A stretch of DNA of 62,032 nucleotides, the filler included. It is 3 parts of 3 records of this genome, joined end to end, with 100 filler letters (N's around TTAATTAATTAA, not from the genome) between each part and the next. Parts side by side here need not be neighbours in the genome. Positions count along the whole stretch, not along the records: positions 31,452 to 54,456 come from DRR378314_2180; 2 more parts are not named here. One strand, given 5' to 3'. Every line of letters begins with the position of its first letter. Within the stretch, counting starts at the first letter, position 1. Below, piece by piece: positions 21,701 through 54,556 of this stretch. Under the pieces are notes generated by a model that searched no databases, had not been told where the DNA came from, and saw only the letters and a program-made list of their open reading frames with translations. The translations under genes were made by a program, and so were the position numbers.

Positions 21701-24700
21701 GCGTTGTGCTTCGCATGGGATTTGTTGCGGATGTGAATGCGTTTCTCGCAACTGCTCTGCCGGCAGGCAGCAGCGGCGCGTCCAGTACCGGTGCTACAGA
21801 TGATGTTCCTTCCGCGCGCGCTGCAGCGACTGCAGAACCACTTGCTGCTCCCTCACGGCTCAGCGTCGAATTGCGCGGTATCAGTATCATAATGCCTGTG
21901 TCGCTCACGGATGAGCGGTGCATCCGGTGTGAACTGGACACTGTGCGTGTCAATAATGATGCACTTGTATTTCCGTGCCCCGGCTCGCTCTCGAGTTTCG
22001 GCTCAGGCACCGCAGCGCACGGCGATATGTGCCAGTCGCTGTTGAATGCGTCGACTTTGGCACTTGCTGGTGATGCGGCGTCCGGTGCAACGAGCGATGA
22101 TGACTTTTTCAGCGCGAGCGAAGACGAGGAAGATGGTGGCGCGGCGGGCGCTGGCGCTGGCGACGACGAAGTCGACGATGACGACGATGACGACGAGGAT
22201 GCGCTGTTCAGCGCGTCGAGTGGATCTGATGGCGATGAAGACGATGTCGCCTTTAGTTATCGGGCTAATGCGACCGAGTGGGATAATAATGACCGCTTTC
22301 AGGCTACGTGTGTCGAAGTGTTGTCATTGCGCATGTGGAGCACCTTCGCAGAGCTTGCGCGCGCCCCAGCGGAGTCTTGTGGCAGTCCGCTTGCGTCGCT
22401 GCATTTGCATGTGTACGTGCAGCAAGTCGAAACGGACTGCGGCGTTGCTGCAGCAACGGGGATGACGGAGACGGACGCAGCGGATGTGGCTGATTTCAGA
22501 TTTGCAGCGTCGGTTGCGCGTGTTCTTGTCATTGCGCCTCTGCCGATTCGACTGCAGGTAGAGCAAAGCTCCGTCGCCGCGCTGCAGGCGTTGGCAGCCG
22601 GCAACCTTTCTGACAGCGGGACAGTTGCGAGTTCAGTGGGCCCCGCTAGTTTTGGTTCCGGTGACGGCCCCTCATCATCTGTGCAAGCAGGGGAACACGG
22701 CCCGGGGAATCAGAGGGACGAGGCGCTTGCGCCGCTGGTGCAGACTGTCGTACGGTTTGCAACGCCCGACGTGACGGTTGGCTTCGCTACTCTCGCGACG
22801 CCAGAAGGCAAAGTGCTCGATGCCCCAAACGACGAGTCGATGGCGGAGGCCGCGAGTGGATATGGCGACGGCGTCGGCGCGCGGACGCCTGCCGCCGCTG
22901 ATCAGTCGCGCGAGCGGCTGCTCGGGACTGTCCGCCTTGGCGCACCGCGTGTAACGCTATGCACAGGACCGGACGGCAACTTTGCTGCGCTGCGCGTAGG
23001 AGCCCTGGGCGTGCATTGCGCCAACGTTGCGGGCTTCGAGCGCGGTGCAACCGGCACATCGCACGAGGGGCGAGGTCTCGGCGCTCCTTTGCTACAATGC
23101 ACGGGTGATGACGGAATCGATCTGGCAGCTTCTGTATTCCTGCCAACCGCGTCACCCGGGGCACCTGGCCAGTCGGCCGTCATTGTTGCTCGGTTATCGA
23201 ATCCGCGCATTGTGGTTGACGTTGAGGCGTTCAGCCAGCTCGCGGGTGTTTTTGCTGGACCCCCAAGTGGCTGCGATGCAGGTGGCGAGCGAAGTATGGG
23301 CGAGAGCGAAGGAGAGCCGGGCCGAGTTGCTGTGGTCAAAGATCTTGGCAGCGGTTTCCATCCCGGAGCAACGAGTGGCAAGCCTCCGACGCGTGGCAGT
23401 CGCGAGGAATCGCCGCGAGCAGCGGGCGGCGGTACGCGCACTGCACCGGGTCCTCCCGAGAGCACCATCGAGTTGCGTGTTGCGATTCCCGGTCTGCAGC
23501 TCGTGGCCCCTGCTGCCGTGCCTGTTGGTGGGGCTGTATCATTATCTCTCGATATCGAAGCCGAGTACGCAGCAGCAAGCAGCGGCCGTCAGATTGCGGT
23601 GGCGAAGCTGCGACAGGTAGAGGCAGCTGCTTGTGCAGGCGCGGCGCTCGGTGCGGATGCGCGCGCGCTGCTGTGGCCGTTCACGGTGAGCGTGGAATTC
23701 AAGGCCGGTATGACAGGGGGCGAACTCGACCTGCCAGATGGCAGCTCGGCGATCCTGTTGGAGGTCGATACCATCAATGGCGAATTAACGGGGCGTGATG
23801 TTCGATTGCTCACGAGCGTTGCCGAGCGTATGTCTGCGGAGGTTGCCGCCCTATCGCCTGTGGATTCCACAGACGGAAGCGCCCGCCTTGTGCCGGTCGA
23901 GCCGGCTAGCGACGGCACGAGCGCGTCCAACGCGGCACCGCATAGCGAGAGCTACGCGTCAGCTGTCGTGCATGAAATCGATCTTCGCATATTGGACGAC
24001 ACTGCTGTTATGCTGCTCCCTGTGCTACGGGTAGTCAGCAGCGATATCAGCGTGCTTGCGCTTACCAGTACGATTTCGAGTGCGTCGCTGCGCAGCGCAG
24101 ACGGGCAAGGGACACCGCAAGGAGGCGACGGCGGATCGCCAGGGAGCCTGTGCGCACGAACGGACGTGGAGGCTGCGCTCACATTGCGCGTCGAGTACTA
24201 CAACCGCACTGTGATGGCTTACGAGCCGGCGATCGAGCCATGGAGCTGCCGAATGGAGCTCCGCCAGGTGACGCCCTTGGTTAGCCATTCGGCAGGCGAG
24301 CGGCGGGCCAACACAGGTGTAGCCGCCGCACCGCTAGTACCGGCCAAGGACCTGCAGTCGACGTCGGCGTCAGCTACTCCGGCAGGCGCCAACGCCGCGC
24401 GGGCAGGTGGGCGAGAAGAGGGCACCGGAAGCGTTGTAGTGCAGAGCGAAATGTCTGTCGCCCTGACGGGCGTTGACCTGTTGAACGTGAATGTAACGCC
24501 GTCACTGTGTCGCAACGTGTCGCGGCTGGTTGATATTTTTGCCGAGAACGGAACGGCGGACTCGCGCGTGGCACCGTCGGCGCCGTTTTCTATTCGCAAC
24601 ATGACGGGCGGCGACGTAGTTGTTGCGGCGGACGAGTTCCGGTCCGAGCGTATCCCGCACGGTGATGTGCGTGCGATCGTCATTGATGATGACGAGGTTC

Positions 24701-27700
24701 TTACGTCGCGTTCTCTTGTGCTTGGCGATACCGAGGCAGAGCGCTCAGCCGACAAGCTGGTGCGCATTTCGGTTGGCTGCAATGAAGGCCCGTGTGCGAG
24801 CGTTCCCGTCCAGCTCGGCACCATGGCCGCTTTCAGCCTTGAAGGCGGAGATGCTGGCCACTCCGGCCCGCCTCCTGTCCTCGTAGTCGATGCCGAAGTG
24901 CGCGGCGATGCGCGCACTTTGACGTTGCGATCGTCGATCGTTGTTGACAACGATACGTGTGGAGATGTGCAGATCATGGCGTACACTTCTGGGAGTGATG
25001 AAAAGTTTAGCGCGCGCCTGGCCCCTGGCAGTTCTGTACCGCTGCCACTGCGCTTGGCTGCCGATGCGCTTCTGCTTGTCCGGCCTGCAGGAACGTCGCA
25101 CGCGTGGTCGCCCGAGGTGCGCGTTGGGTCGCTTGGCAGGCCGGGCGCCGCTGTCGTGTGCCTTGCCGCTGCCGTGCACGGCGACGGTAGCGTAGCCGAT
25201 GGCGTGCTACCCCCACTGGCGTCGCCCATGACGACGGCAGGGCTGTCGAAGCCGGACCCCGGTGTCGGCCGGTGGCGGTGGTGGCCGGCGAGGCGGAGCC
25301 AGAGCGGGAACGGCCCAGTACACCCCGACGAACGCGCGCCTGAGCGCTCGGCAGCGGCTCAGCCGGCGGACACGGGGCGGTCTGTAGTAGACGGCGACAA
25401 GTACGCGCCAAGTACTGTTGGTAAACCTGGTCAAGGGCGTGGTGCGCATGCGAATACATCCAGTGCGGCGCGCGATGGCGGCGCTCCGTCTCTGTCGCGC
25501 AGTGGGTCGGTGCGCCGGTCTCTCGCGCTCGACACGGCACGGTCGTCGAGCGCATCGGCATCGTTCCGCTCGCGCACGTCTGCGGCCAGCACGGCTTCGC
25601 GCAGGAGCTACGCAATGGCGCTGGGCGTACACGCAAACGAGATGCGTGTTTTCGGACAGCGTTGCGGAGCGCGAACTCCTGCGCAGGCGCTGCACGATGC
25701 TTCGTTCCCGCTCTCCGACAGCGGTTCGGCAAGTGCGTCGGCGTCGGCGTCGGTGTCGGGGGCAACTCCGTCGATCCCCGAGGGAGCTGCGCAGGCCGCC
25801 GGCGTCCCGGTCCGGCACGCGCGCCTGCGCGCGCGCAATCTCCGAGTGTCGTTGCGTCCGCTCGTACGCGTGCGTAATATCGCGCCTGTGACACTGCACT
25901 TGAGTTTTGGCGACGAGCGCGAGCGGGAAGTGGAAGCAGATGTTGTAGTGGCGGGGGGCGAATCGGCAGACGTGGCGCTTGCTGCCGCGCCCGCTGGGCG
26001 GCATGTGGTAGTGCAAGTCCGACGCGAGGGCTGGCCGTGGTCGCGGCGCGCGCGCGTTTCTCCAAAGACGCGCGGCGTGACGCTCACCGACCCGCTTGGA
26101 CAGCGCATCCGCCTGTCCTTGCGCATTGAAGAGTTGTCCGGCGGAGCGCTCGATATCACTGCGTACTTTGCGTTTGTTGTGTACAATGTGACCGGGCTGA
26201 ATTTGAAGTATGCGGAAGTCGATGTGGTCGGCGGGCGCACTCGGATGCGTACGCAGGACGCACGGCTCGACGCGCGAACACTGAGCGGCGTTCGTGAGCT
26301 TTTCCTTCGGCAGAATGAGCTGCAGCGCATTCCCAATATGATGTTCTCGACGTCGCAGCTGCTGCCGTTGCGTGCACGAGCCGCCGTTCGCGTCGCTGAC
26401 GTGAAAACAACGTGGACAGATGCATTCAGCGTTGAGTCGGTCGGCTCGGTTGGTCATGTGCACGTTCGTGAGCACCACAGCATGCTTGATCGCTTTGTGA
26501 ACCGGCATCGCCTTCGCCGCTTCGATTTTGGTGTACAGGTGCAGACGCCGACTGGCGTGGGCGGCGATATAGGCGGCACGAGCTCGTCGATAGCTAACAC
26601 AGCTGCTGCCGCGCAGTGTCCACGCGAGAGCGGGCTTGGACTTGTGCACGAGATAGTCGTGGCACCGCGCTATGTGATTGTGAATGCTTCTTCCTGCGGC
26701 CTTGTGGTTAAGGACGCGTATGCCCCTGACTCGAATAGCGCCGGTCGTGCTGCTGCTGAAGTGCTGGCACCGCATGCGTGCGTGCCGATGTATTGGGCCG
26801 ACCACCGGCATCCGGGATATGTGCAGATTGCGCTCGCAGATCAGGACTCGCAATGGTCCCCGCCAGTTCGCATTGAAGCGGTAGGGACGCGGTTTGCGCG
26901 GGTGCCACTTCTCGGCGGAGAAGCGAGTAGTCACGATAGGGGCGCGCCGCCGCACACCTCCGAAGGATCTCCGTTGTATCATGGCGACGAAATCGTTCCG
27001 AGCTGGCAGGACGCGAGTGCCTTTGTAAGCCTGACGATCACGCTGCGCGGCGCCTCGCTCTTTGTCGCGGTTCGCGAGGTGGAGACGACTCCGTACCGGG
27101 TCGAAAATCACACAGGAGTGCCCGTCTTTGTGCAGCAACGTGGCGTGGAAAACGCGGCTGCTGTCGGCGCGCTTCCTTTCGACAGTGCTCCGTTTGTATG
27201 GGACGACGAAGACAAGAAGCACGAGGTGGTTGTGTCGATGCGAAAGGGTCCGTTTGCCGCCGAGGCACCGCCGCCGGCACGCGCTGGCCATTCTGCAGAT
27301 GCGCGGCCGGACGAAGAGACCCCAGACCAGGTCGACGAGCCACGGATGTCATCTTCGTCCGGGGACTATGTTGATGCGTCGATCATGTTTGATCGCGTTG
27401 GCGAGTGCAAGGAGCTCGAGGGGTCGCTAGCCGGTCCTGTTCGTGTTCTTGTTGTCCTAGATGGCGCCACCAAGGTTCTCGTTGTGGCACCGCTCGCGAG
27501 TGCTGGTATCCCGGAGCTGCTGCCGCGATCTGGTGCGACTGCGGCGCGCCACGCCGACCGCAGTTCCACTGTTGCATCGGATGAGAGTGTTCCGGGTACT
27601 GCTGTACTGTCTGCGGCTGCGCAGAGTGCGGCGGCTGTTGCCGTGGACAGCATGACGCGGATCGTGCTAGCGCTGCCGCGTCTCGGAGTCTCGCTGGTAA

Positions 27701-30700
27701 CGGCGCGCCCACGAGAACTCTTGTACATAACTCTCTCCGGCATTGAGATCAGCGGGGCGATTTGCTCGCAGAAGGACACGGAAATCGATCTGAGCGTTGG
27801 CGATCTGCAAATTGATCATCAATCGTACAGCGCGCATTTTCCCGTCGTCCTTCATGCTCCGCCCAGCGAACGGCGGCTTGCAGACGACAAGGCTGACGGG
27901 CAGGCGGGGTCGCCCGGATCAGCTTCCCGGGATCTCGTGGAAACGCTCCCTGTGTTTTTTGCACATGTGTCTCTCTCAAACAAACGCGCGGATGTGGACC
28001 GGTTTGAACGTCTTGTCCTTGTTCTGCAGCCTCTGCATGTCCAGCTCGAAGAGCAGCTGTTATACAATATCGCTGAATTTGCTACAGATGTCGCGCTTGC
28101 CTTTGGAGACAATGACGCAACAAGTGAACCAGACGATATGGGTGCAGGGCGCAACGCGGACCTGGACAAGGCGCGGAGTCCGCGTCAGGGCAAAGATGTG
28201 CCAAATGCGAGCTCGCACAAGAGCCGCGCTGCCGCTGAAGACGGAGCCGCGTCTGCGCTCGAGAGTGTGCTCGCGAGTGTTTCTGCTGCAGGGAAGTCGC
28301 GCCTCGTGTACTTTCGCAAACTCGAAATTCATCCTGTCAAAGTCTGGGTGTCGTTTGCTGCGTCTGCTCTTTTGCGTGATGATGAAAGTGGCGACAGTGA
28401 CGAGGGCGACGATGACGATGCTGGCGGTAGCGAAGGCGAGGATCGTGATCACAGCGCAGGAGAGGATCGCGAGACGGTACGCGACGATGGCGGCGCGCGT
28501 AGTGACGGCGGCCGGGTTCCACGGTGGCGGCGTGCATTTGCTCGGTGGAAGCCAGATCATCGGGCTGGCGCGGATCCTGAACCGCGTGCAAGTCCGTCGA
28601 GGAGCGACACCGATCTTGAGGATGTCACGCGGTTTCCCGAGGGGTCACAGGCCGGGTCCGTCGGCGAAGGGCATTCGAGCCGTGCGAGCCAATCGTCTTC
28701 AGCATCGGATCGCGCCAGCGGTGCCGGCGCGTTCTCGGAACCGCTATCGGCGCCCTCCAGCAGCGCGGGCGATGGGGTCGCGCGCGGAACTCGACGACGC
28801 GACAAGGGCCGTCGGCGTTCTCGTCGCTCTCGTCGTCGACGTCGGCGTCGTGCGTCAAACGCTGCCTCTGCGGGGCGCGTCGGGGGAGGATCGGCACTCA
28901 CGACGGGGGCGTCGTTGTTCGTGTCGCGGTTTGTGCGATCTGTGGGGCTGACCCTGGCGTCCATTGACCGTGCGCCGATTCGCCTGAAGTCTCTGTCCAT
29001 TGACCACGTGTTTGAGACGCACGCGCAGCTAGCGGAGAGAATCTCGCAGCATTACCAGATGCAAGTTGTTTTCGAAGTGTACAAGATCCTTGGGTCTGCT
29101 GACATTCTTGGCAATCCGGTGAACCTGGTCTCGTCGCTTGGTACAGGAGTGACGTCGCTCTTTTACGAGCCCGCGCTTGCAATGCGCGAGTCGGCATCGC
29201 TGTCCAGTGTTGGGCGCGGTATTGCACGCGGTGCATTGTCGGCGGTGAAGCACTCGCTTGCTGGAGCACTGAACACTGCATCAAAACTGACGGGAACCGT
29301 CAGTGGCGGGCTGGCGAATCTCGGCTTCGATGACGACTATGTCCGCCGGCGCAGGGTGATGTTGTCTCGCACGCGTGCCGCTGGCGGGCCGACTTCCGGC
29401 GGCGCGAATCCACGCGCAGCACACGCAGATCAAGGGCGCAGAGCGACGGGCGGTTCCGACCGCGATAGGGGGCTGACACACACGCTTGAGGCCACTACGA
29501 GCGTTGGGCGCTCGATCGGTGCTGGCGCGATGCATCTTGGACGCGGGATTCTCGATGGTGTCGCCGGAGTTTTGACCAAGCCGATCGAGGGCGCCGGGCG
29601 CGACGGATTTGGCGGTTTCCTCAAGGGCATTGGCAAGGGAATCATTGGCGTTGCTGTGAAACCGGTGACGAGCGTGCTGGACTTTGCTTCACACACGACA
29701 GACTCCCTGCGCCACTACACGGAGACACTGGACGGCAGTGGCGGCGACGATCTCACGAATGTGCGGCGCGTGCGCGCCCCGCGGCTCTTCGGCGGCAGCG
29801 GGAACATTTTGGTACCTTATGCAGAAACAGAGTCGGAGGGGCAATTTCTCTTGTATAGTATCGATGGCGGGCAGTATGCGCGGGAACGTGTGCTTGCGCA
29901 TCTAACGGTACCGCCGTCCTCTGTGCTTGTGACTGCGCGGCGCATTCTGTGCGTGAAGCTGCGCACACTCGCACAGCGGTGGATGGTGCCAGTGCGTGAG
30001 ATTCACGCAATCGAGATTGAGCCGGAGAGCACGTCGAACGATCGAAAAGATGTAGTACATGTTGTGTACGAACGCGAAGAAGACAAGGCGAGGAAGCGCG
30101 CTGTACATGGCAAGGGCAGACACCACAATCTAAAGCGGCGCTCGTTTGCGCTTCCACCGTCGGGGACGGCGGAAGGAACACGAATTCGCAACGCAGTCTC
30201 CCAAATCAAAGCCCTCATTGCTGAGCGGCGGAACGGCGCCGTGCCCTTGCTTGTCGGGGCAGGTGCGGCGCGGCGGGTGCAGCGCGGCGGAAGTAGCGTC
30301 GCTGAAGAAGATGCTGCGATCGGGGCTTCGCTCGGCGGGGTGGGGAGCGCTGCATCTGTGATCAACGACAGTGCCAGTGATATTAGCAGCGTAGCGGGTG
30401 TTGAACAGCGCATTCCGGGGGATACTGCGCGCGCGGCCGACGTTGGCAACGTGTCGCAGCCGAGCGGCGATGAGCGCGCGCCGGAGCGACAAACCGGCGC
30501 GGCAGCTGTGGCGCCGGGCGTGCGCGACCTGCAGAGGTCCGTGTCGTTTGCCGGAATCGATGTCGGAAACGAAAGCGACGGCGATGATCGAGACCGCAGT
30601 TTCAAGACGTCTGCAAGTGAGCGCGAGGGTGGCGAGGCTGGCGCTTCCGTGACGGGGCCGGGTAGCGCCTCGGAGGCGTCGACGTCTGGAACAGGGCCGA

Positions 30701-30780
30701 TTGGGGGCAAGGGCCGCCGCCGGCGCGCAGGACGCTTGTTCACACCGATCGAAGATACGATTGTGCGAAAGCACAAGTAG
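15777..30780 (+). CDS. VPS13: VPS13-family bridge-like lipid transfer protein, ~4539 aa, 3 exons
   Basis: Exons 15777-15867, 16555-16676 and 17374-30780 join in frame into a chorein N-terminus (LKKTLGKYVRDLNVDKLNL-G-VTGGNIVLENL...GFIGKLMIQ-VSWLSLLSSPIEIRIENLFLL). Later motifs: NPRAWWRFA, VAPRYVIVN, PYRVENHT, RELLYITL, LQIDHQ, GFLKGIGKGIIGVAVKP. Confidence 0.95.
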
Positions 30781-31351: not shown

Positions 31352-31451
31352 NNNNNNNNNNNNNNNNNNNNNNNNNNNNNNNNNNNNNNNNNNNNTTAAT
31401 TAATTAANNNNNNNNNNNNNNNNNNNNNNNNNNNNNNNNNNNNNNNNNNNN
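31352..31451. other. Artificial contig spacer
   Basis: 44 N + TTAATTAATTAA (stops in all six frames) + 44 N. Confidence 0.98.
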
Positions 31452-31457
31452 GTCAGC

Positions 31458-31638
31458 ATGCCGCGCTTCAAGGCTTATAACCACGATCAGAATGCCATGG
31501 GGGATCAACTACCAAGACCAGCTCCCGTCAAGCATCTTTGAACACGCTATATCTGATCGAGCACAAGCTCGACTTGTCCGCTTTCCATCTCCCAGTACCG
31601 TAACGACCGGACGGCTGGCCTACGATCCGGCCATTCTT
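31458..31638 (+). pseudogene. IS1182-family transposase N-terminal remnant, frameshifted and truncated
   Basis: MPRFKAYNHDQNAM..INYQDQL..FEHA..LIEHKLDLS..TGRLAYDPAIL spread over different frames. Confidence 0.75.
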
Positions 31639-32008: not shown

Positions 32009-32125
32009 GCATAACAAATTGCTCCATTTGATTCAGCGGTCTACGCTCCTTTTTATGCATTCACAATGTTCACTGTTGCACAAAAAATCGCTACAACCGT
32101 TGCGTAAATGAGCAAGGCGTTATCG
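32009..32125 (+). mobile_element. Integron attC site, apparently intact
   Basis: GCATAAC...GTTATCG outer cores. The inner box TTGCTCCATTT pairs with AAATGAGCAA, leaving one extrahelical base. Confidence 0.85.
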
Positions 32126-32146: not shown

Positions 32147-32512
32147 ATGCAATCAGACGTAGTTAATTTGTCCGAAAAATTCAGTAAGTTTGCTGAATAC
32201 TGGTCGCCACGCGTTGTCGCGGAGATGAACGACTATCAGATCAAGCTGGCAAAGTTTCAGGGGGATTTTGTTTGGCATGATCATAAAGATACGGACGAGG
32301 TTTTTTTGGTAGTCAAAGGAGCAATGGGCATTGAACTCCGAGATGGTACTGTTCATCTATCAGAAGGAGAGATATATGTTGTTCCCAGGGGTGTGGAGCA
32401 TCGGCCCTTCGCTGAAGATGAATGCCATGTCCTCCTTATTGAGCCTCAAGGCGTGGTCAATACAGGGGACTCCGGCGGCGAGCTTCGGGCGGAAAATGAT
32501 GTGTGGATATAG
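32147..32512 (+). CDS. Cupin domain protein (cassette)
   Basis: [46 protein letters not shown] before ATG 32147. Confidence 0.9.
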
Positions 32513-32527
32513 CGATAGGCTATCTTT

Positions 32528-32580
32528 CGCTAACAATGCTAAGCACGGAGATGTATTTTTCGTTCCGGCTTCATCTCTCT
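32528..32580 (+). mobile_element. attC left-half remnant
   Basis: CGCTAACAATGCTAAGCACGG. TCGCTAAC is near-complementary to the cassette's 5' core GTTATCGA; the right half is missing. Confidence 0.6.
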
Positions 32581-32680
32581 TAAGGTGGACCCTCAAACGT
32601 CTGAATTCCAATATTATGACGATTCAGGCAGATAACTCGCTGAGTAAATAAATTAGGATGATAGGCGGTGGAGGCGGCTC

Positions 32681-32710
32681 GAAATGGGGTTTTCTACCGT
32701 CTCGTTAAAC
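32681..32710 (+). mobile_element. IS-like terminal repeat abutting a cassette core site (copy 1)
   Basis: GAAATGGGGTTTTCTACCGTCTC|GTTAAAC, similar to 39975-40002. Confidence 0.55.
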
Positions 32711-32736
32711 GATAAAATATACTGTATAGGCGTGAA

Positions 32737-33510
32737 ATGGATTATTTGAGCATAAATAAAGAGGCGTGGGACAAAAGAACCAAAGTACACGTTGAATCGT
32801 CGTTCTACGATATTGAGTCATTCAAAAATGGTAAATGCTCGTTAAACCCAGTAGAGCTGAAACAGGTTGGAAATGTAGAGGGGAAATCTTTATTACATCT
32901 ACAGTGTCATTTTGGTCAAGATACCCTGTCTTGGGCTCGTTTAGGTGCAGAGGTCACGGGTGTTGATTTGTCTGCTGATGCAATCGAACAGGCAAACTTA
33001 CTGAAGCAGTCTTTAGGCTTAAAAGCAAATTTTATCGAAAGTGACGTTGTTCAATTTGGTCGTGAAAACACACAGAAATTTGATATCGTATTTACTTCAT
33101 ACGGAGTTTTGTGCTGGCTATCCAATTTGGCGGATTGGGCACAAACAGTCGCTAAATCATTAAAAACTGGTGGCGAATTTCATCTGATTGAGTTTCATGC
33201 TTTTTGCGACTTGTTGTCAGGTTACTCGTACTTCTCTCGCGGTGCCCCTGATGTTGAAGAGGAAGGTACTTATACCGAAAACTGCGATGGCACTAAATCA
33301 ACTGTGGTGACTTGGTCCCATTCAATGAGTGAGGTTATAAGCGCTTTAATTGGTGCAGGGTTAGCTATAGAGTCTTTCTCTGAGCATCCCTATAGCCCTT
33401 ATAATTGCTTTGATGGTTTAGAGTTGGTGCCAGACTTAGGGTATCAAATGTTATATAAGGGACAACAGGTTCCATTGTTGTACGCAATTAAAGCACGAAA
33501 AATCGCCTAA
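32737..33510 (+). CDS. Class I SAM-dependent methyltransferase (cassette)
   Basis: LLHLQCHFGQDTLSWARLGAEVTGVDLS; the stop codon lies inside GCCTAAC. Confidence 0.9.
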   Translation: MDYLSINKEAWDKRTKVHVESSFYDIESFKNGKCSLNPVELKQVGNVEGKSLLHLQCHFGQDTLSWARLGAEVTGVDLSADAIEQANLLKQSLGLKANFIESDVVQFGRENTQKFDIVFTSYGVLCWLSNLADWAQTVAKSLKTGGEFHLIEFHAFCDLLSGYSYFSRGAPDVEEEGTYTENCDGTKSTVVTWSHSMSEVISALIGAGLAIESFSEHPYSPYNCFDGLELVPDLGYQMLYKGQQVPLLYAIKARKIA

Positions 33511-33631
33511 CATGCTGCTCGAAAGCTATTATGTGATTTTCTCGGTTTAGTGTGTACCTTGGGCTAGTTCAGGCGAGGCGAAAAAATCCAGCATACAAGA
33601 AGTAGAAGAAGACACTGTTTGACGGGCATCA

Positions 33632-33661
33632 TTGATGCTTACGTGAACACGTAAGCATCAA
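33632..33661. terminator. Perfect 14-bp inverted repeat between convergent genes
   Basis: TTGATGCTTACGTG-AA-CACGTAAGCATCAA. Confidence 0.55.
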
Positions 33662-33714
33662 CCAAGTAATGCTAAGCGTTGTCTAACCGTTACTCAGGGA
33701 AATGATTAGGGCGC

Positions 33715-34257
33715 TCAGTTATTGCCCCGCTTCAGCGCCTCTGCGTCGATTTCCAGGAAAGCCTGCTCGGAAGACTCATGTTGCCCAGTCGACTCAAAAG
33801 TCTTCAATAGTGACCACTCATAAAGTGGGGCGCCGGGGTGTTGGCTGGATTGTTGGATACCGTAAACCTCAAACGTAAAAGGCCCAGGCCCAAACAAATC
33901 CCTATTCTCAGTATGCTTTTTGGCGACCACTAGAAAAACGCCATTATCGGACTCGAAAAGGCGGTTGTCCCGAATCGTTATGGCGCCGGAGAAAATACGA
34001 TGATCTAGCCAAGTGAATGTATCTCGATTGGCTGCTGGTATAATGCTGAGCTCGCCGTTAGGCATGCGAATGAAGAAGGTCAGCGAATTATTACTATATG
34101 ACATGTTTCTGTCATATATCGAGGCAATGACATAATCCTCCATACCGTTTCTGTTGAGATCAATACGGTTTACGCCATCGGTTAACTCAAGCTGAGAAAA
34201 CGCCATGGCATTAGTGCTAAAAAAGTAAACCAGCAGGAAGAATAGGTGCTTACTCAT
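33715..34257 (-). CDS. carG: CarG-like (carbapenem self-resistance family) exported protein
   Basis: Signal peptide, then LTDGVNRIDLNRNGMEDYV...YDRNMS; 180 aa; overlaps the end of the carF-like gene. Confidence 0.65.
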   Translation of the reverse strand: MSKHLFFLLVYFFSTNAMAFSQLELTDGVNRIDLNRNGMEDYVIASIYDRNMSYSNNSLTFFIRMPNGELSIIPAANRDTFTWLDHRIFSGAITIRDNRLFESDNGVFLVVAKKHTENRDLFGPGPFTFEVYGIQQSSQHPGAPLYEWSLLKTFESTGQHESSEQAFLEIDAEALKRGNN

Positions 34258-35116
34258 CGACCGCTCTTATTAACCGGAAACCGATATCGGGCATTCCAAA
34301 CCCCGGAGAATGTACATCACAACCTGATAGCACGTTAGTGACAGCCTGTTGATAGCTGCCACCACAAAAATAATACATGGGGATTCCCTGAGCGTAATGG
34401 TTTCTTTCATCAATCCACTCCGCCGCGTTACCGCTCATATCGTAAAGATCCAAAGCATTGGGAAGCTTAGAGCCAACGGGCAGCGTACCCAATATGGTGC
34501 CATCTTCAGAGGGGAAGTTGGCGACTGCTTCTGGTTGTGGACTGCCTGAATGAGGGTAGCCATAGGAACCGTCTGCAATACCTTCATAGCCACCTCTAGC
34601 CGCGACTTGCCATGCAACCATATCAGGTAAACGGTACCCCGATGCTTTAGGCGCCCTTAGTATGTCGGAGCTATCATCGATTTCCGGTATGGCTTTAAGC
34701 GGCGCCCCCTCGGTGTCTAAGTAGTAGGGAGTCAGCCCTTGGTATTCACTTAGGGCATTGGCAAACAAAATGGTATCCCACCAGGTGACATTAACGGCAG
34801 GGTGCTGGCCGCTACTCTGGTTGTCTGACCGACAGCCGTCAATTGTGGCGCCATCACAGGCGTCGCCCAATGAATAACCATGTTGGAAGGCCCAGGATTG
34901 CACTTCCTGATAGAGCCGATACGGCACTTCCGTTTTCATGATCAAGAATGACGGGGTAGAAAGATTGGCATTGCCAGCATAATCTTGGTCGCCAAAAAAT
35001 GTGCCGACGTAAAAGCTGCCGCCCTCTACTTTAGCTTCGTCTGGCAAATGAAAACTACTCTGCGCAAACACAGGTGTACAAAAAAGAAAACACAAAATCC
35101 CGGTGACATTTTTCAA
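34250..35116 (-). CDS. carF: CarF-like FGE-sulfatase (SUMF1) domain exported protein
   Basis: Signal peptide; TEVPYRLY, HPAVNVTWWDTILFANALS, GYRLP, PNALDLYDMSGNAAEW, DIGFRL. Confidence 0.7.
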   Translation of the reverse strand: MKNVTGILCFLFCTPVFAQSSFHLPDEAKVEGGSFYVGTFFGDQDYAGNANLSTPSFLIMKTEVPYRLYQEVQSWAFQHGYSLGDACDGATIDGCRSDNQSSGQHPAVNVTWWDTILFANALSEYQGLTPYYLDTEGAPLKAIPEIDDSSDILRAPKASGYRLPDMVAWQVAARGGYEGIADGSYGYPHSGSPQPEAVANFPSEDGTILGTLPVGSKLPNALDLYDMSGNAAEWIDERNHYAQGIPMYYFCGGSYQQAVTNVLSGCDVHSPGFGMPDIGFRLIRAVDE

Positions 35117-35499
35117 AATCTAAAACCTTAGGTCTACTAGTGCCTAATTATTTTTTGGGAAATATAAATTTTTCGATTTTACGTTACGCTTATTGTAGTT
35201 AATAATCTGCTTTAAAAGCTATCGCTAATTCATAGCAGAAGCAGACCTTTCGTCGCATTGCGGACTAGTCTTTGGGGAAGCAGAAAAAGGTATCTCTGAC
35301 CAAGGCCTCGCTACTGAGCAGAACAGCGACCGACCTGACATTATCGATGGCGTTGACAACAATTGATGCGGAGAATGCCGCCGACGCAGCCTATGCAGGC
35401 GTTCGCACCGTTACCTTCAAAGTAAAATCGGTCAAGGAAAATAAGTAGCAAGGCGTTACTTATCTTGGTTGGAGCAGTTAAAGATGCAGGAGTAAAGCA

Positions 35500-36222
35500 G
35501 TGGAAACATATAAGCCTATACAGGTTCTCAAACCTGTTGCCAAAGATATTTGGATTGTGGATGGGCCACTCATAAAGTTTAAAGGGGTAAGCTTTCCTAC
35601 TAGGATGACGATTGTTCGGTTATCTTCTGGGGCATTATTTATACATTCTCCGGTCGAGCTTACTCAGTACTTGAAAGAAGAAGTTGAAAAGCTAGGAGAA
35701 GTTAAACATCTTGTGTCTCCCAACAGAATTCACTACTGGTGGATTGGTGAATGGAAAGCACTATATCCAAACGCAATATCATGGGCATCTCCTGGTTCTC
35801 GTGACGCCGCGCGGAAAGCTGGTTGGGAATTTGATAAGGATCTTTCAGATGAGCCAGAAAACGAATGGCGAGGGGATATAGAGCAGTTGATCGTTAAAGG
35901 GAGTAGGATTTTAGAAGAGGTCGTCTTTTACCATAAAGGCTCTAATACGCTTATCCTTGCTGATTTAATCGAGAATTTTGAGGCTCAAATGGAAAAATCA
36001 CTGATTATAAGGATGTTCATGTGGCTTGCTGGTAATTTGGATCCTGACGGCAAGCTTCCAATTGATTTGCGAATGGCATATTTAGGACGCCATAAGCAAT
36101 TAAAAAAGGCGATTGATAAAATTCTGGAATGGAGTCCTGATAAGGTAATCATTGCCCATGGCCGTTGGTATGAAGCGAATGGCGTTGCCGAATTAAAGCG
36201 TGCTTTTCGATGGGTGAAATAA
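35500..36222 (+). CDS. DUF4336 family (metallo-hydrolase-like) protein (cassette)
   Basis: FPTRMTIVRL, FIHSP, VSPNRIHY, LILADLIENF, IIAHG. It is preceded by AGCAAGGCGTTA (35448-35458 region), the same as the right end of the intact attC. Confidence 0.85.
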   Translation: METYKPIQVLKPVAKDIWIVDGPLIKFKGVSFPTRMTIVRLSSGALFIHSPVELTQYLKEEVEKLGEVKHLVSPNRIHYWWIGEWKALYPNAISWASPGSRDAARKAGWEFDKDLSDEPENEWRGDIEQLIVKGSRILEEVVFYHKGSNTLILADLIENFEAQMEKSLIIRMFMWLAGNLDPDGKLPIDLRMAYLGRHKQLKKAIDKILEWSPDKVIIAHGRWYEANGVAELKRAFRWVK

Positions 36223-36233
36223 TCAATAGCCAA

Positions 36234-36287
36234 AGATGATAAGTCAAGGCTGCCGGAGGCTTCGCGCCGCAGCTTGGGGCATTAGCA
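36234..36287 (+). mobile_element. Decayed attC
   Basis: CAAGGCTGCCGG-...-GCTTCGC-...-CCGCAGCTTG stem with an extra base; both cores are mutated (ATGAT; GGGCATTAGC). Confidence 0.7.
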
Positions 36288-36311
36288 GTCAGCAGTAAAA
36301 AGGAACTTTCA

Positions 36312-36434
36312 ATAGACTTAAAGTATCGTTCAGCTAAATCTGAAGATCTGGAGAGTCTTGTAGCTTTGCTTATAAATGACCTGCTTAGTAGTCAAAGAGA
36401 AGACTCAGCGATTTCTTTGGGAAGGCGATTCTGA
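36312..36434 (+). pseudogene. Truncated GNAT acetyltransferase N-terminus
   Basis: (ATA)DLKYRSAKSEDLESLVALLINDLLSSQRED...*, downstream of an AGGA RBS. Confidence 0.55.
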
Positions 36435-36835
36435 TGACTGATCATGTTGGTTCTTGTCTGTGTGGCACCGTGAGATTTAAGGTAGAAGGCGAGTTTGACA
36501 GCTTTTACCTGTGTCATTGTCAGCACTGTCAAAAAGATACAGGTTCGGCTCATGCGGCAAATCTATTCTCAAGTTCAGCTAAATTGATCTGGCAGTCAGG
36601 TACAGATGCTGTGACTTGCTTTGCGCTTCCAGGCTCTCGTCATAATAAGAGTTTTTGTAAGTTGTGTGGTTCAGCATTACCGAATACTCAGATCGCGGGT
36701 TTGCTCGTTGTTCCTGCTGGGTGTTTGGACACTGAAATCACTATGTTGCCAACTGCACACATCTTTTTATCTAGCAAAGCTGCTTGGGATGGGGAGTTGG
36801 GGGAGGTGCTAAAGTTTGAGGGGCTGCCAGATTGA
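36434..36835 (+). CDS. GFA (glutathione-dependent formaldehyde-activating/CENP-V) family protein
   Basis: GSCLCG, CHCQHCQK, FCKLCGS. Confidence 0.92.
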   Translation: MTDHVGSCLCGTVRFKVEGEFDSFYLCHCQHCQKDTGSAHAANLFSSSAKLIWQSGTDAVTCFALPGSRHNKSFCKLCGSALPNTQIAGLLVVPAGCLDTEITMLPTAHIFLSSKAAWDGELGEVLKFEGLPD

Positions 36836-36844
36836 GCGACCATC

Positions 36845-36913
36845 ACGTAATCAGCGGCTGCTGCGGATACACCTATGCTGCGTTTTGTCATGCCGTAGAG
36901 CCAAGCATTAAGT
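36845..36913 (+). mobile_element. Decayed attC
   Basis: ACGTAAT..GGCTGCTGCGG...CCGTAGAGCC..GCATTAAGT; stem with an extra base, mutated cores. Confidence 0.7.
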
Positions 36914-36925
36914 CCAGGAATTACT

Positions 36926-37543
36926 ATGAGTTTAGTCGAAATATTAACTCTGTTTACAGTGATGTCAGCTTTAGCGCTAGTCCCCAGTACTAGTGTCGCC
37001 TTGGTCGTTGCTCGCGCTTCTTCTGCCGGATTCTCGAACGGCTGTGCCGTTGCGGCGGGTATTGTAGTCGGTGATCTTATCTTTGTATTGCTAGCTGTTT
37101 TAGGGATGACGGCGCTGGCAGACGTTGTGGGCAGCTTTTTCTTGATACTGAGATATTTGGCAGGCGCGTATTTGATCTGGTTTGGTATAAGTCTCATGAG
37201 ATCGAAAGCTCCATTGCAGGTGGAGCATTCCGGCCGGTCAGCATCGAAATTATCAGCAAGCTTTTTCTCTGGTCTACTCCTCACCCTCGGTGATGTAAAA
37301 GCTATATTTTTCTACGCGAGCTTATTCCCTACTTTTGTTGATTTGGCCACTATCCGGACATTGGATATCGCAGCAATTGCGATGATAACCATAGTCGCCG
37401 TTGGTGGTGTCAAATTAGGCTATGCATATTTCGCGGGGGCCGTTGCGTCAATTGGCATTAATCATAGAGCAGAACGAGCAGTTAAAGTGACGGCTGGTGG
37501 TTTAATGGTTGGAGCCGGATCGTATCTGATAGCAAAGGCTTAA
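36926..37543 (+). CDS. LysE family translocator (cassette)
   Basis: Hydrophobic; LRYLAGAYLIWFG, GLLLTLGDVKAIFFY. Confidence 0.9.
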   Translation: MSLVEILTLFTVMSALALVPSTSVALVVARASSAGFSNGCAVAAGIVVGDLIFVLLAVLGMTALADVVGSFFLILRYLAGAYLIWFGISLMRSKAPLQVEHSGRSASKLSASFFSGLLLTLGDVKAIFFYASLFPTFVDLATIRTLDIAAIAMITIVAVGGVKLGYAYFAGAVASIGINHRAERAVKVTAGGLMVGAGSYLIAKA

Positions 37544-37651
37544 GAAAGGCGCCAGCTGTAGCTGGCGCCATACCGTCTTTTGGCCCCATCAAACATGATC
37601 AACTTTGTGGGTGATTCAATCTGCTTCTACGCGTATCAGAAGTTGAAAAAC

Positions 37652-37692
37652 ACATAACAAGCAAAGGCAGGCGGATACTTCGGGCGTTATTA
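37652..37692 (+). mobile_element. Internally deleted attC
   Basis: ACATAACAAGCAAAGGCAGGCGGA joined almost directly to CTTCGGGCGTTAT. Confidence 0.65.
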
Positions 37693-37776
37693 TTTGCCCC
37701 TTAACCCTCGAGGAGGTAGGGCTATAAACACTTCAAAGCTAGATATCTCGTTACGACTAGGCTGATGCCTTCCTGC

Positions 37777-37806
37777 TTGACATATGCGTTGGTAAGGTTC
37801 TAAAGT
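37777..37806 (+). promoter_or_regulatory. Sigma70-like promoter of the MATE operon
   Basis: TTGACA-18 bp-TAAAGT. Confidence 0.6.
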
Positions 37807-37811
37807 CTGCG

Positions 37812-37952
37812 GCTAAAGGTATCGGGCACCTGCCGCCTGCAGACGCAAGTCACGGTGAAGCCCGACGGTACGAACATACTCACTCTCGAAGCATTTCGTA
37901 GGTGGGCAATGCAGGCCCCCATCAAGAACGAAATGCCTCATTTGAGGAGTGA
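37812..37952 (+). ncRNA. Candidate structured cis-regulatory leader RNA
   Basis: Pairings TCGGGC/GCCCGA, GAC-GCAA-GTC, GCCTGCA/TGCAGGC, GCATTTCGT/ACGAAATGC, and CCTC/GAGG over the SD. Confidence 0.55.
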
Positions 37953-39353
37953 ATGATGTCGTCCCGACACTCACCTGACAATCGTTTTTTGATTGCCCCC
38001 ATAGGGCGAACCTTCTTCGCCAATGCATTTCCAATGATGCTCGTCATGACAATGAACGGGCTGCTGAATGTTGTCGACGCCACTTTCTTAGGGCACTTCG
38101 TCGGCACCAATGCCTTAGCTGCCGTCAGCATCGTCTTTCCGGCCTTTATGATCACCGTTGCCCTGTCGACTCTTGTCAGCGGTGGTATGTCGAGTCTTCT
38201 GGCCCGTCACCTGGGCGCGGACGCAAGAGATCAGGCTGCGGCAGTCTTTACTCGAGCACATGGGTTGGCACTCTGTATCTCACTCACTCTGATCGTGATC
38301 TTCCTGGTAGGGGGGCGTGCCGCCGTTGGCTACTTGACGGATGGGCAGAACGGCATCACTGGGATGGCCCACTCTTATCTATCGATCATGATCTATGCGA
38401 CGCCGTTACAGTTCCTGCTTGGGCTGCATGCGGATGCATTGCGCAATGAGGGCCGGGCGGGGTTCATTGCGCTAATGTCGATTGGGGTGACGCTTGCTAA
38501 TATTGCATTGAACTATGTGCTGATCGTTATTCTTGACCTCGGCGTCGCCGGGTCAGCTTGGGGCACGGTGCTAGCCCAGGGCCTGGGCTTAGGGCTATTG
38601 ATTGGCCTGCGCCTGCGTGGAGACGGATTACTGCCGCTTTCATCGCTCGGCAGATACCGCTGGTCTGGGGACTGGCGCCCTATACTAGCCCTTGGGGCGC
38701 CTCTCAGTCTCAGCTTCATCGGTATCGCGCTTGTCTCGGCGACTCTGATCGCAACCCTGCGACTGACAGCAGAGGCTGGCTATGCCGACACTATCGCGGC
38801 CTACGGGATCGTCACTCGGATCTTCAGTTTCAGCTTCTTGCCCTTGATGGCTATCGCGCTCGCAACCCAGAGTGTCGTCGGGAACAATGTCGGCGCGGGG
38901 CTCTTCCTTCGGTCGGATGCTGTACTGCGACTCGCACTCGGCACAGCACTGTTTTATTGCGTTGCAGTTGAGATCATTCTGCTCGGCAGCAGCCACTATA
39001 TTGGGGCGGGCTTTGTCCGGGACCCAGTCGTAGTGGCCCAAGTGGGAGCGATCCTGCGTCCTATGATGTATTTTTACTTCGTCGTTGGTCCGCTTCTAGT
39101 ACTAGCGCTCTATTTTCAAGCGGTGGGGCAGCCGGGGCGCGCAGCGATTCTGACGTTAACCAAACCTTTCTTGCTGAGCCCGGCACTGATTGTTGCGCTT
39201 GGGTTCATCAAAGACGCCGAGGCGATTTGGTTCGCGTTCCCAATTGCCGATGGCCTCATGGCTAGTCTGGCAATTGTAATCGTGACTGCCAGCCTGAAAC
39301 GGCATACCACCGGCTCCGGATTTGGGCTGGCAATACAGGGAGAGCCAACATGA
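37953..39353 (+). CDS. MATE family efflux transporter
   Basis: GLLNVVDATFLGHFVGTNALAAVS, LRNEG, NIALNYVLI..LGVAGSAWGT, GNNVGAG. Confidence 0.95.
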   Translation: MMSSRHSPDNRFLIAPIGRTFFANAFPMMLVMTMNGLLNVVDATFLGHFVGTNALAAVSIVFPAFMITVALSTLVSGGMSSLLARHLGADARDQAAAVFTRAHGLALCISLTLIVIFLVGGRAAVGYLTDGQNGITGMAHSYLSIMIYATPLQFLLGLHADALRNEGRAGFIALMSIGVTLANIALNYVLIVILDLGVAGSAWGTVLAQGLGLGLLIGLRLRGDGLLPLSSLGRYRWSGDWRPILALGAPLSLSFIGIALVSATLIATLRLTAEAGYADTIAAYGIVTRIFSFSFLPLMAIALATQSVVGNNVGAGLFLRSDAVLRLALGTALFYCVAVEIILLGSSHYIGAGFVRDPVVVAQVGAILRPMMYFYFVVGPLLVLALYFQAVGQPGRAAILTLTKPFLLSPALIVALGFIKDAEAIWFAFPIADGLMASLAIVIVTASLKRHTTGSGFGLAIQGEPT

Positions 39354-39784
39354 GCCTGCAAACACTCGCGGAAGCCAAGGCGCAGGCAAAATCGCTGCGC
39401 CAAGCGCTTGCCGCTGCAGGAACACAGATTAGCCACGCTCAATCGCTGGAGCTCATCGCCCAGCAAAACGGGGTGCGGGACTGGAACACGCTCTATGCCC
39501 GGCTTTCAGGTGCCGAACCAACGCCCTTCAATATCCATGATGAGGTTCGTGGCCAGTACCTGGGGCAAAATTTTAGCGGCCGGATTGTTGCGATATCTAA
39601 GGTAGGAAAAAGCTATAGGCTTTCGATACAGCTGGACCAGCCGATCGATACCGTCCAATTTGCGAGCTTCTCCAACATGCGCCGTCGTATTAGGGGCGTC
39701 ATTGATCAAGAAGGTCGGTCACCACAAAAGACGTCGGATGGCACGCCGCAATTAATCGTCGAGCCTCTCGTGCGCCGCAGGTAA
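39350..39784 (+). CDS. Glyoxalase_8 ('glyoxalase superfamily') helical-domain protein, translationally coupled to the MATE gene
   Basis: AKAQAKSLRQAL...ISHAQSLELIAQQNGVRDWNTL; ATGA overlap with the MATE stop. Confidence 0.8.
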   Translation: MSLQTLAEAKAQAKSLRQALAAAGTQISHAQSLELIAQQNGVRDWNTLYARLSGAEPTPFNIHDEVRGQYLGQNFSGRIVAISKVGKSYRLSIQLDQPIDTVQFASFSNMRRRIRGVIDQEGRSPQKTSDGTPQLIVEPLVRRR

Positions 39785-39974
39785 ATAGCGCCGGCACTTC
39801 AACCAGGTAATGTGGGCGGGAGTTGCGAACCGTCCACACCTCTACCTAGGTATATTTGAGCGCACGCTACACTATCTGTTCGAATACAAGTTAGGCTTAT
39901 CGGTTTTCCATCCGAAGTGTCGCTATGACCGTTCCCCAAAATCTACCAATTTCGAAGGTGGTAGATAGGACCCG

Positions 39975-40002
39975 GAAATGGATTTTCTACAGCCTGTTAA
40001 GC
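39975..40002 (+). mobile_element. IS-like terminal repeat abutting a cassette core site (copy 2)
   Basis: GAAATGGATTTTCTACAGCCT|GTTAAGC. Confidence 0.55.
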
Positions 40003-40039
40003 CTCTATAATGACAGCATTTAGACAGTAAGGAAGTCGA

Positions 40040-40663
40040 ATGAAAAAGATGTTTTTAACTTCATCTTTCGTAGATGTTGCCGATCTATTTGTGAAATTTA
40101 CCAGCGCAAAATGTGTAGGAAAAACGGTTACGTTCATTCCTACTGCAAGCCTAGTCGAAGAGGTCAATTTTTATGTGGCCGCAGGCAGAGATGCACTCGA
40201 GAAGTGTGGACTAATTATTGATGAACTTGAGATTTCAACTGCTCCAAGTGAGGAGATAAACAGCAAGCTTCAAAAAAATGACTATATCTATGTCACTGGT
40301 GGAAATACTTTCTTTTTACTTCAAGAGTTGAAAAGAACTGGTGCAGATAAAATCATAAAGAAGCAAATAAGTTCAGGGAAAATGTATATCGGAGAGTCTG
40401 CAGGCTCTATCGTTATGTCACCTAACATCGAGTATGTGAAAGACATGGACGATTTCACGGCGGCACCTAATGTAGTCTCTTTTTCATCATTAAATATGGT
40501 TGATTTTTATCCGGTACCACACCATACCAACGCTCCTTTCAAGCAAGTCGTTGAAAGCATAATCACTAGCTATGATGAAAAAATAGACCTTTGCCCAATT
40601 AGTAATACGCAAGCAATTATCATCAATGGCGATGAGTTTGACGTCTGGAAGGTCGAAACTTAA
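40040..40663 (+). CDS. Peptidase S51 (peptidase E-like, type 1 glutamine amidotransferase-like) protein (cassette)
   Basis: FIPTAS, YVTGGNTFFLL, YIGESAGS, PVPH; the stop lies inside ACTTAAC. Confidence 0.9.
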   Translation: MKKMFLTSSFVDVADLFVKFTSAKCVGKTVTFIPTASLVEEVNFYVAAGRDALEKCGLIIDELEISTAPSEEINSKLQKNDYIYVTGGNTFFLLQELKRTGADKIIKKQISSGKMYIGESAGSIVMSPNIEYVKDMDDFTAAPNVVSFSSLNMVDFYPVPHHTNAPFKQVVESIITSYDEKIDLCPISNTQAIIINGDEFDVWKVET

Positions 40664-40751
40664 CCAGACACAGCAGTTCGCGGACTATGGTTACGAGGTA
40701 CTCATTCCCCGCGCCGCTAAGCTTATTATAGAAGAACAAGGAGGTCGTAAA

Positions 40752-54456: not shown

Positions 54457-54556
54457 NNNNNNNNNNNNNNNNNNNNNNNNNNNNNNNNNNNNNNNNNNNN
54501 TTAATTAATTAANNNNNNNNNNNNNNNNNNNNNNNNNNNNNNNNNNNNNNNNNNNN
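54457..54556. other. Artificial contig spacer
   Basis: 44 N + TTAATTAATTAA + 44 N. Confidence 0.98.

Follow-up and report, generated by a model that had tools for sequence, protein, structure and literature searches.

Two short motifs in an integron-type gene cassette array, found at positions 32681–32710 and 39975–40002 of the 62,032-nt stretch of DNA analysed here (the window), very probably represent the right terminal inverted repeats (IRRs) of dead copies of an IS1182-like, attC-specific insertion sequence (IS); we place the probability of this reading at roughly 0.88. The first motif reads GAAATGGGGTTTTCTACCGTCTC and is followed by GTTAAAC, while the second reads GAAATGGATTTTCTACAGCCT and is followed by GTTAAGC; both are present, fused to these cassette cores, where the initial annotation of the window had located them. 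As that annotation had also proposed, each GTT is complementary to the 3′ inverse core of its own cassette (ATCGCCTAAC at 33502–33511 and GAAACTTAAC at 40655–40664). Aligned with each other, the two motifs score 27, compared to 16.8 ± 2.1 for 200 shuffles (largest 23), which is moderately above chance. The window itself is made of three contigs that are joined by runs of N around an all-frame stop linker, TTAATTAATTAA (at 31352–31451 and 54457–54556); the adjacency and orientation of the three pieces therefore carry no evidence, and the cassette array begins at a contig break.

The identity of the motifs was established from full-length elements in other genomes. A pattern spanning both copies of the motif found 38 matching stretches in contigs representing one genome per species (with ~9 expected by chance under equal base frequencies), and in 20 of these 38 stretches the motif was followed by GTT. 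One contig of 1830 bp (L016) holds a whole element, with a 523-aa open reading frame (ORF) starting MPRFKPYNYDQ and the terminal inverted repeat GAGACTGTAGAAAAACCC at both ends, flanked by GTT on the left and by GTTA on the right; its titled coverage is 329.8, versus 57–111 for three larger contigs of the same assembly. Full copies range from 1793 to 2293 bp, comprising five elements of 1793–1839 bp, each with a single long ORF and repeats at both ends, and one element of 2293 bp. The live element is thus described as ~1.8 kb long, with terminal inverted repeats of 16–18 bp (GAGGCTGTAGAAAAAC...) and one gene, which encodes a 523-aa DDE transposase. Internally deleted copies of 581, 757, and 1517 bp were also found, as were miniature derivatives of 163, 167, 280, and 388 bp, which are non-coding but keep both repeats and show GTT flanks like those of the parent. 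The transposase matches three Pfam families above their cut-offs, i.e., PF05598 (DUF772; 56.4 bits), PF13751 (DDE_Tnp_1_6; 93.3 bits), and PF01609 (DDE_Tnp_1; 45.5 bits), and its best NCBIfam model is IS1182 (NF033551; 268.8 bits, E = 9.5e-80, profile positions 27–487 of 488); the name given to it by NCBI is “transposase” only. The IS1182 family, which includes IS1182 and ISKpn6, has a length range of ~1.3–1.95 kb. With one DDE transposase carrying DUF772 and DDE_Tnp_1_6, the best NCBIfam match, inverted repeats, and a length of ~1.8 kb, the element resembles this family and is an IS1182-like insertion sequence.

In the full elements, the repeat that forms the core of the window motifs occurs as an inverted pair around the transposase gene, so the motif is indeed an IS terminus of the IS1182 type, as had been suspected; more exactly, it consists of the right terminal inverted repeat and ~5 subterminal bases. 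The 23-bp motif was, however, only part of what the element left behind, as the IS-derived tail of copy 1 extends over 139 nt (32565–32703). The following traces of the element, and of the attC sites that it adjoins, were annotated in the window:

31453–31637, plus strand: IS remnant 1, from the 5′ region of the element (element positions ~58–267), with ~60 N-terminal transposase codons distributed over three frames.
32528–32564, plus strand: truncated 5′ part of the attC of the cupin cassette, with R″ CGCTAAC at 32528 and the internal word TTCGTTCC; a weak call, made by eye and from shared words.
32565–32703, plus strand: IS tail 1, the final 139 nt of the element, with the IRR at 32686–32703 and the motif at 32681–32703.
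39797–39836, plus strand: probable attC remnant (5′ part) of the MATE/glyoxalase cassette, with an R″-like CTTCAAC at 39797; also a weak call, by eye and from shared words.
39837–39918, plus strand: IS remnant 2, an 82-nt internal fragment of the 5′ region of the element, with transposase N-terminal codons.
39957–39995, plus strand: IS tail 2, the last ~40 nt of the element, with an IRR that lacks the final C and the motif at 39975–39995.

The transposase remnant that had been reported just before the first cassette is real (70–86% DNA identity to full elements) and frameshifted; it is bounded on the left by the start of the contig and on the right by an abrupt stop at 31637/31641. Its DNA identity is 70–75% to six full elements and 86% to a Halomonadaceae element (L126). 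The second transposase fragment (remnant 2), located just upstream of copy 2, had been missed by the initial annotation; it aligns locally with 31533–31589 with a score of 41 (16.8 ± 2.0 for shuffles) and is 74% identical to the L126 element (E = 7e-9). A candidate stretch of transposase codons at 39789–39836 was dropped, and this sequence is now assigned, by eye and from shared words, to the 5′ portion of an attC; AACCAGGT and CCGTCCAC, which occur in 39797–39836, are also found in reference attC sites. Tail 1 shows 77–81% identity to the 3′ ends of three elements (L122, L124, and L126) and of the 280-bp miniature in G004 (Vreelandella venusta NBRC 102221), and the left end and transposase gene of this copy have been deleted. 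Among the 29 Halomonadaceae genomes with a match, 28 aligned with the copy-1 tail, either alone or together with more of the query; in these other genomes, tail-only alignments numbered 42, of which 32 terminate at window position 32707, which corresponds to the end of the element plus GTTA. Tail 2 shows 77–89% identity to the final 25–40 nt of six full elements, and the structure of copy 2 is also found in G004 (L025).

None of the three remnants in the window has a left terminal repeat; all three are dead copies, and, because the left repeat is lacking, they do not represent miniature elements. The attC of the cupin cassette has kept ~37 nt from its inverse core but has lost its 3′ half and R′ core. 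The attC losses upstream of both window copies result from later deletions and not from the insertion itself. Both decayed copies keep a similar length of the upstream attC, ~37–40 nt from the inverse core, joined to IS-internal sequence; this similarity may be a coincidence or may reflect a deletion mechanism tied to the attC hairpin.

The sequences flanking the element point to a highly specific insertion site. In two sets with one locus per genome, GTT was found directly outside the repeat (AAC on the other strand) in 26/28 and 28/30 junctions, the exceptions being two junctions with GAC and two apparent chance matches in a gene; over all loci, the triplet was present in 86 of 106 distinct junctions. 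Right flanks (n = 47) show GTT followed by A (42), R (32), R (33), and Y (38), i.e., GTTRRRY, and left flanks (n = 34) carry C at −1 in 33 cases and G at −2 in 26; all 15 left flanks that were aligned end in CGTT, in a set that had been chosen for GTT. An attC 3′ end (...CGTT) forms the left flank in ~28 of 32 distinct junctions. The resulting layout is attC...CGTT-[IS]-GTTRRRY-next cassette, in which an intact insertion leaves the attC whole on its left. Insertion at the attC/cassette crossover triplet, as put forward in the initial annotation, is thus supported by left flanks that are overwhelmingly attC 3′ ends and by right flanks that read GTTRRRY. Two details of that proposal had to be revised: instead of the expected TAAC-[IS]-GTTR, the left flank is the attC 3′ end ...(G)CGTT, and insertion does not replace the attC, which is lost only in the decayed copies of the window.

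The nature of the flanking triplet could be deduced from a 167-bp miniature located in an Rhs-like gene (G005:C2:2155-2321; L076) and flanked by GTT on both sides (GTT...GTT). Three uninterrupted Rhs-like paralogs read ...CACGTTGCC... and have one GTT at the insertion point, which identifies GTT as a 3-bp target duplication; the duplication is 3 bp (GTT), or 4 bp (CGTT) if the final C belongs to the target. The GTT is therefore a direct repeat rather than a part of the inverted repeat of the element, and insertion sites are not unrelated to cassettes. The insertion in the Rhs-like gene of G005 is the sole clear non-attC insertion that we observed. Four other loci (L001, L015, L034, and L035), from other phyla or classes, share the same repeat core but have AAC, AAT, and AAA as outside triplets; these loci may represent relatives with another target or chance matches.

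The clearest integron context is provided by the complete genome of M. nauticus (G001), which has intI, an attI region, and three cassettes that each end in a canonical attC. The third of these attC sites is occupied, at its GTT, by three full-length copies arranged head to tail with one GTT between neighbours (G001:C1:2925009-2930496; L073, also L003 and L020); these are the only copies in this genome, and intI is intact. A similar junction, in which an IS end, GTT, and a miniature element follow each other, was found in L007 (G003:C41). In G001, the transposase reads away from intI, which is the direction of the cassettes, and a miniature copy near the integrase in G005 is oriented in the same way; the left end thus faces intI in both integrons that could be read. 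In many junctions, the right-hand GTT is followed by a start codon on the same strand.

GTT is the triplet at which IntI exchanges strands, i.e., the crossover point. In the explanation favoured here, the element inserts at this very triplet in the R′ core of attC and duplicates 3 bp in doing so; its left end always abuts the attC, its right end always adjoins the following cassette, and the transposase reads in the direction of the cassettes. The DDE transposase itself may recognize the 3′ end of attC, through CGTT together with something structural, because CGTTA alone would be far too common to account for the specificity. In the window, deletions have since stripped two such insertions of their left end and of most of the transposase gene and have also removed the 3′ half of the attC upstream, and the right end has remained fused to the GTT of the next cassette; with the 3′ half of its attC deleted, the upstream cassette has lost its recombination site. 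Nothing in the data shows a relocation of cassettes without IntI, which had been suggested as a further consequence of insertion.

Evidence that the left flanks are attC sites comes from a structured R/L-box score (AAC, a spacer of 4–7 nt, and then a bulged stem), which had a mean of 5.86 for the 32 distinct left flanks, as compared to 2.71 (standard deviation 1.94) for 500 random AAC sites; 17 of the 32 flanks reached or exceeded the 95th percentile of the controls, and the two groups differed significantly (Mann-Whitney p = 9.5e-14). By eye, an inverse core (..TAAC) could be found 50–130 nt away in 28/32 left flanks. Several results weigh against attC specificity or against the assignment of the element. 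The attC calls were made with our own score, by inspection, and from position beside intI, with no curated attC model (IntegronFinder). A plain anchored arm-complementarity score and the best constrained hairpin energy both failed to separate the flanks from the controls; minimum free energy z-scores of 15 flanks were all negative but modest (−0.07 to −4.06), with only four of the 15 beating all 200 shuffles, and MAFFT alignment of 15 flanks followed by RNAalifold gave no consensus structure and hence no attC covariance model. Four of 32 left flanks, including one in a coding gene, are not attC-like, suggesting that the specificity for attC is strong but not absolute. In addition, 25 of 132 repeat-positive genomes had no intI match, the score of 268.8 bits against NF033551 lies just under the curated cut-off of 270, and the 59-aa frame upstream of copy 2 had no Pfam match. 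Strict arm-complementarity attC scans of the window yielded nothing useful.

The alternative that survives these data best, though improbable, is that the element prefers only a short word, CGTT(A), and that its location in attC sites is a by-product of arrays that are rich in this word and tolerant to insertion, combined with purging elsewhere. The miniature in the Rhs-like gene shows the same GTT duplication, some left flanks are not attC-like (4/32), and the only invariant bases at the site are C-GTT-A, all of which would fit such a preference. However, simple arithmetic predicts several thousand occurrences of CGTTA per 4-Mb genome, while ~28/32 distinct left flanks are attC 3′ ends, with insertion exactly at the R′ triplet and in a single orientation, and all three copies of the complete M. 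nauticus genome are located in one attC; selection for harmless sites would not give a fixed position and orientation within attC.

Less probable still is that the units were moved by IntI and not by their own transposase, with the IS behaving as a gene cassette or being captured at secondary GTT sites. This would account for GTT on both sides and for tandem units with one GTT between them, as GTT is the IntI crossover triplet; the units are in cassette orientation, and the three units of G001, separated by single GTTs, look cassette-like. The 3′ end of the element, however, has no attC-like structure: with 165 nt plus GTT from six elements and the two window copies, the attC score was 0–6 for these eight tails, whereas the same score on random sites had a mean of 2.71 and a 95th percentile of 6.0. 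The 3′ end is thus not attC-like, and a unit without its own attC is no gene cassette. Movement by IntI is also contradicted by the perfect terminal inverted repeats and the DDE transposase, by miniatures that keep just the two repeats, by flanks that are direct and not inverted repeats, by the 3-bp duplication at a non-attC site, and by the presence of the element in genomes without an intI match (G003, G004, and the 25/132 repeat-positive genomes given above). Finally, the idea that the motif is a conserved arm of recombination sites (a host-specific attC 3′ arm or an attI × attC leftover), which its exact abutment to the GTT core would suggest, can be dismissed with near certainty. The same 16–18 nt flank a transposase gene as inverted copies ~1.8 kb from each other, and inspection by eye showed no complementarity between the motif and the upstream inverse-core region in the window. 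The motif is also absent from other attC sites of the same arrays, and the window array yielded no comparable family of repeats.

The attC-specific IS1182-like element has counterparts among two kinds of mobile elements that are already known to use attC. The IS1111-attC group (ISPa21, ISPst6, and ISKpn4, of the IS110/IS1111 family) inserts site-specifically and in one orientation into cassette attC sites (PMC3001079, PMC11187229). These elements are located close to the attC 5′ end, in antisense to the cassettes (PMC3001079), and encode DEDD transposases whose target is chosen by a seekRNA (PMC11187229). The element described here likewise inserts into attC site-specifically and in one orientation, but it has a DDE transposase (IS1182/IS5 type) rather than a DEDD transposase, has terminal inverted repeats and a 3-bp duplication, and is located at the 3′ R′ core GTT in sense orientation, which places it outside this group. 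Group IIC-attC introns (e.g., S.ma.I2) are mobile elements specialised on attC in cassette arrays; these retroelements integrate into the bottom strand, opposite to cassette transcription and near the attC 5′ end (antisense), and some carry an outward promoter (PMC3001079). Our element, in contrast to these introns, is a DNA transposon and lies in sense orientation; when the retained tails were scanned with a consensus for outward promoters, no σ70-like site was found in 32500–32800 or 39780–40080. Elements of the IS1202 family related to ISAjo2 bear a transposase and inverted repeats and are found at a fixed distance and orientation from dif/pdif (XerC/D) sites (PMC10132070); the element described here differs from them in IS family, in recombination site, and in being located on the crossover triplet itself.

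By its use of one attC position and one orientation (~28/32 left flanks, according to our own attC calls), the element falls into the functional class of attC-targeting elements. No member of the IS1182 family is known to us to have specificity for attC or GTT, and none emerged from a literature search that did not extend to ISfinder. An IS1182-type element that targets attC was nowhere described in this search, which had ISfinder, TnCentral, Tetu and Holmes 2008, and Post and Hall 2009 outside its scope; an attC-targeting IS1182-like element is thus probably new.

Full and miniature copies were found in Marinobacter, Halomonas/Vreelandella, Pseudomonas, and Halopseudomonas. Of the 263 genomes in the G002 family, a set that includes two Marinobacter genomes, 132 contained the 17-nt core of the repeat (with up to one mismatch), as did 103 of the 342 genomes in the G004 family; the reversed pattern gave seven and five matches, respectively. 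In the 263-genome set, the repeat and an intI match co-occurred (107/25/67/64; odds ratio 4.1, Fisher p = 3e-7, uncorrected for phylogeny). Two Halomonadaceae genomes that contain cassette arrays and copies of the element (G003 and G004) showed no integron integrase above the family cut-off, and their arrays may thus be integrase-less; the repeat-positive genomes without intI are compatible with such arrays. In the plasmid collection PLSDB, remnant 1 gave no blastn match, the copy-2 tail gave just five chance-level blastn matches (E = 5), and the transposase gave three weak tblastn matches (41–47% identity), indicating that the element family is not seen on PLSDB plasmids. The element family is common in marine and salt-loving bacteria.

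The array that received the two insertions is located on the middle contig (31453–54456), which has a G+C content of 42–57%, as compared to ~60% in the neighbouring contigs. From ~31640 to ~42100, this contig carries short genes with unrelated functions, all on one strand; Pfam matches in the array include OmdA, cupin, methyltransferase, DUF4336, GFA, LysE, MatE plus glyoxalase, peptidase S51, GNAT, tautomerase, and SH3. The remaining features annotated in this region are:

31352–31451, no strand: contig joint, consisting of a run of N, the linker, and a second run of N; the cassette contig starts at 31453.
32009–32125, plus strand: complete attC of the OmdA cassette, with R″ GCATAAC at 32009, L boxes TTGCTC/GAGCAA, and R′ GTTATCG at 32119; called by eye and from the Pfam OmdA match.
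32704–33511, plus strand: methyltransferase cassette, with core GTTAAAC at 32704–32710, ORF at 32737–33510, and inverse core GCCTAAC at 33505–33511.
39996–40664, plus strand: peptidase S51 cassette, with core GTTAAGC at 39996–40002, ORF at 40040–40663, and inverse core ACTTAAC at 40658–40664.

The textbook attC between the OmdA and cupin genes identifies the region as an integron-type cassette array. At the ends of the methyltransferase cassette, GTTAAACGAT is complementary to ATCGCCTAAC at all but two positions. A match to this cassette, which was sought in order to fix its 5′ boundary, could not be found in the family of G002; the two homologs in the family of G004 (G504 and G503) are limited to the gene, with alignments that begin at the start codon and so do not locate this boundary. 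The nearest genomes, G004 and G572, have arrays that are 92–97% identical to that of the window but differ in whole cassettes. Since no integron integrase in G004 passes the family cut-off, the array of the window may lack its integrase as well.

The left boundary of the OmdA cassette (window 31641; G004:C7:59075; G572:C1:1919063) is common to the three strains, and the sequence upstream of it differs; an IS remnant precedes this cassette in the window only, and the shared part begins with GTATTTC and not with GTT. The gene pair encoding MatE efflux and Glyoxalase_8 proteins (37700–39784) has a G+C content of 49–57%, versus 42–49% in adjacent cassettes, and is preceded by a structured-looking leader of ~400 nt that had no Rfam match at the gathering threshold; at gathering thresholds, Rfam gave no matches in the whole window. 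A single ORF of 4544 aa is located at 17146–30780 on the G+C-rich first contig and is unrelated to the IS finding.

A broader interpretation, which we regard as tentative and less likely than its converse, is that this lineage of IS1182-like DDE transposons is a specialised parasite of integrons, and a third independent class of attC-targeting elements, which targets and duplicates the crossover triplet, forms composite cassettes, is transcribed from Pc, and fixes cassettes as it decays. With GTT duplicated and a left junction (GTTGAGG) that is near the core consensus, the upstream attC would stay usable; the IS and the cassette that follows it would, if this interpretation is correct, form a composite cassette that could be excised and passed on by IntI. 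The transposase would be transcribed from the integron promoter Pc, because the element is in sense orientation and has a short leader. Decay products would then delete attC halves, fuse and fix cassettes, and possibly seed integrase-less arrays.

Two kinds of mobile elements were previously known to home to attC, namely the IS1111-attC group, with its RNA-guided DEDD recombinases, and the group IIC-attC introns; the addition of a DDE transposon that occupies the opposite end of attC in the opposite orientation would mean that attC has been colonised independently at least three times. The element would also offer a protein-only system for examining how a classical transposase recognises a structured recombination site. 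For annotation, the 16–18 nt element end beside GTT represents a simple marker of cassette boundaries. Because the element is located on the exact strand-exchange triplet and is common (132/263 and 103/342 genomes), it likely shapes cassette arrays; its likely effects in marine and halophilic Gammaproteobacteria include interrupted operon-like transcription, tandem IS blocks, and removal of attC sites on decay, through which cassettes would become fixed.

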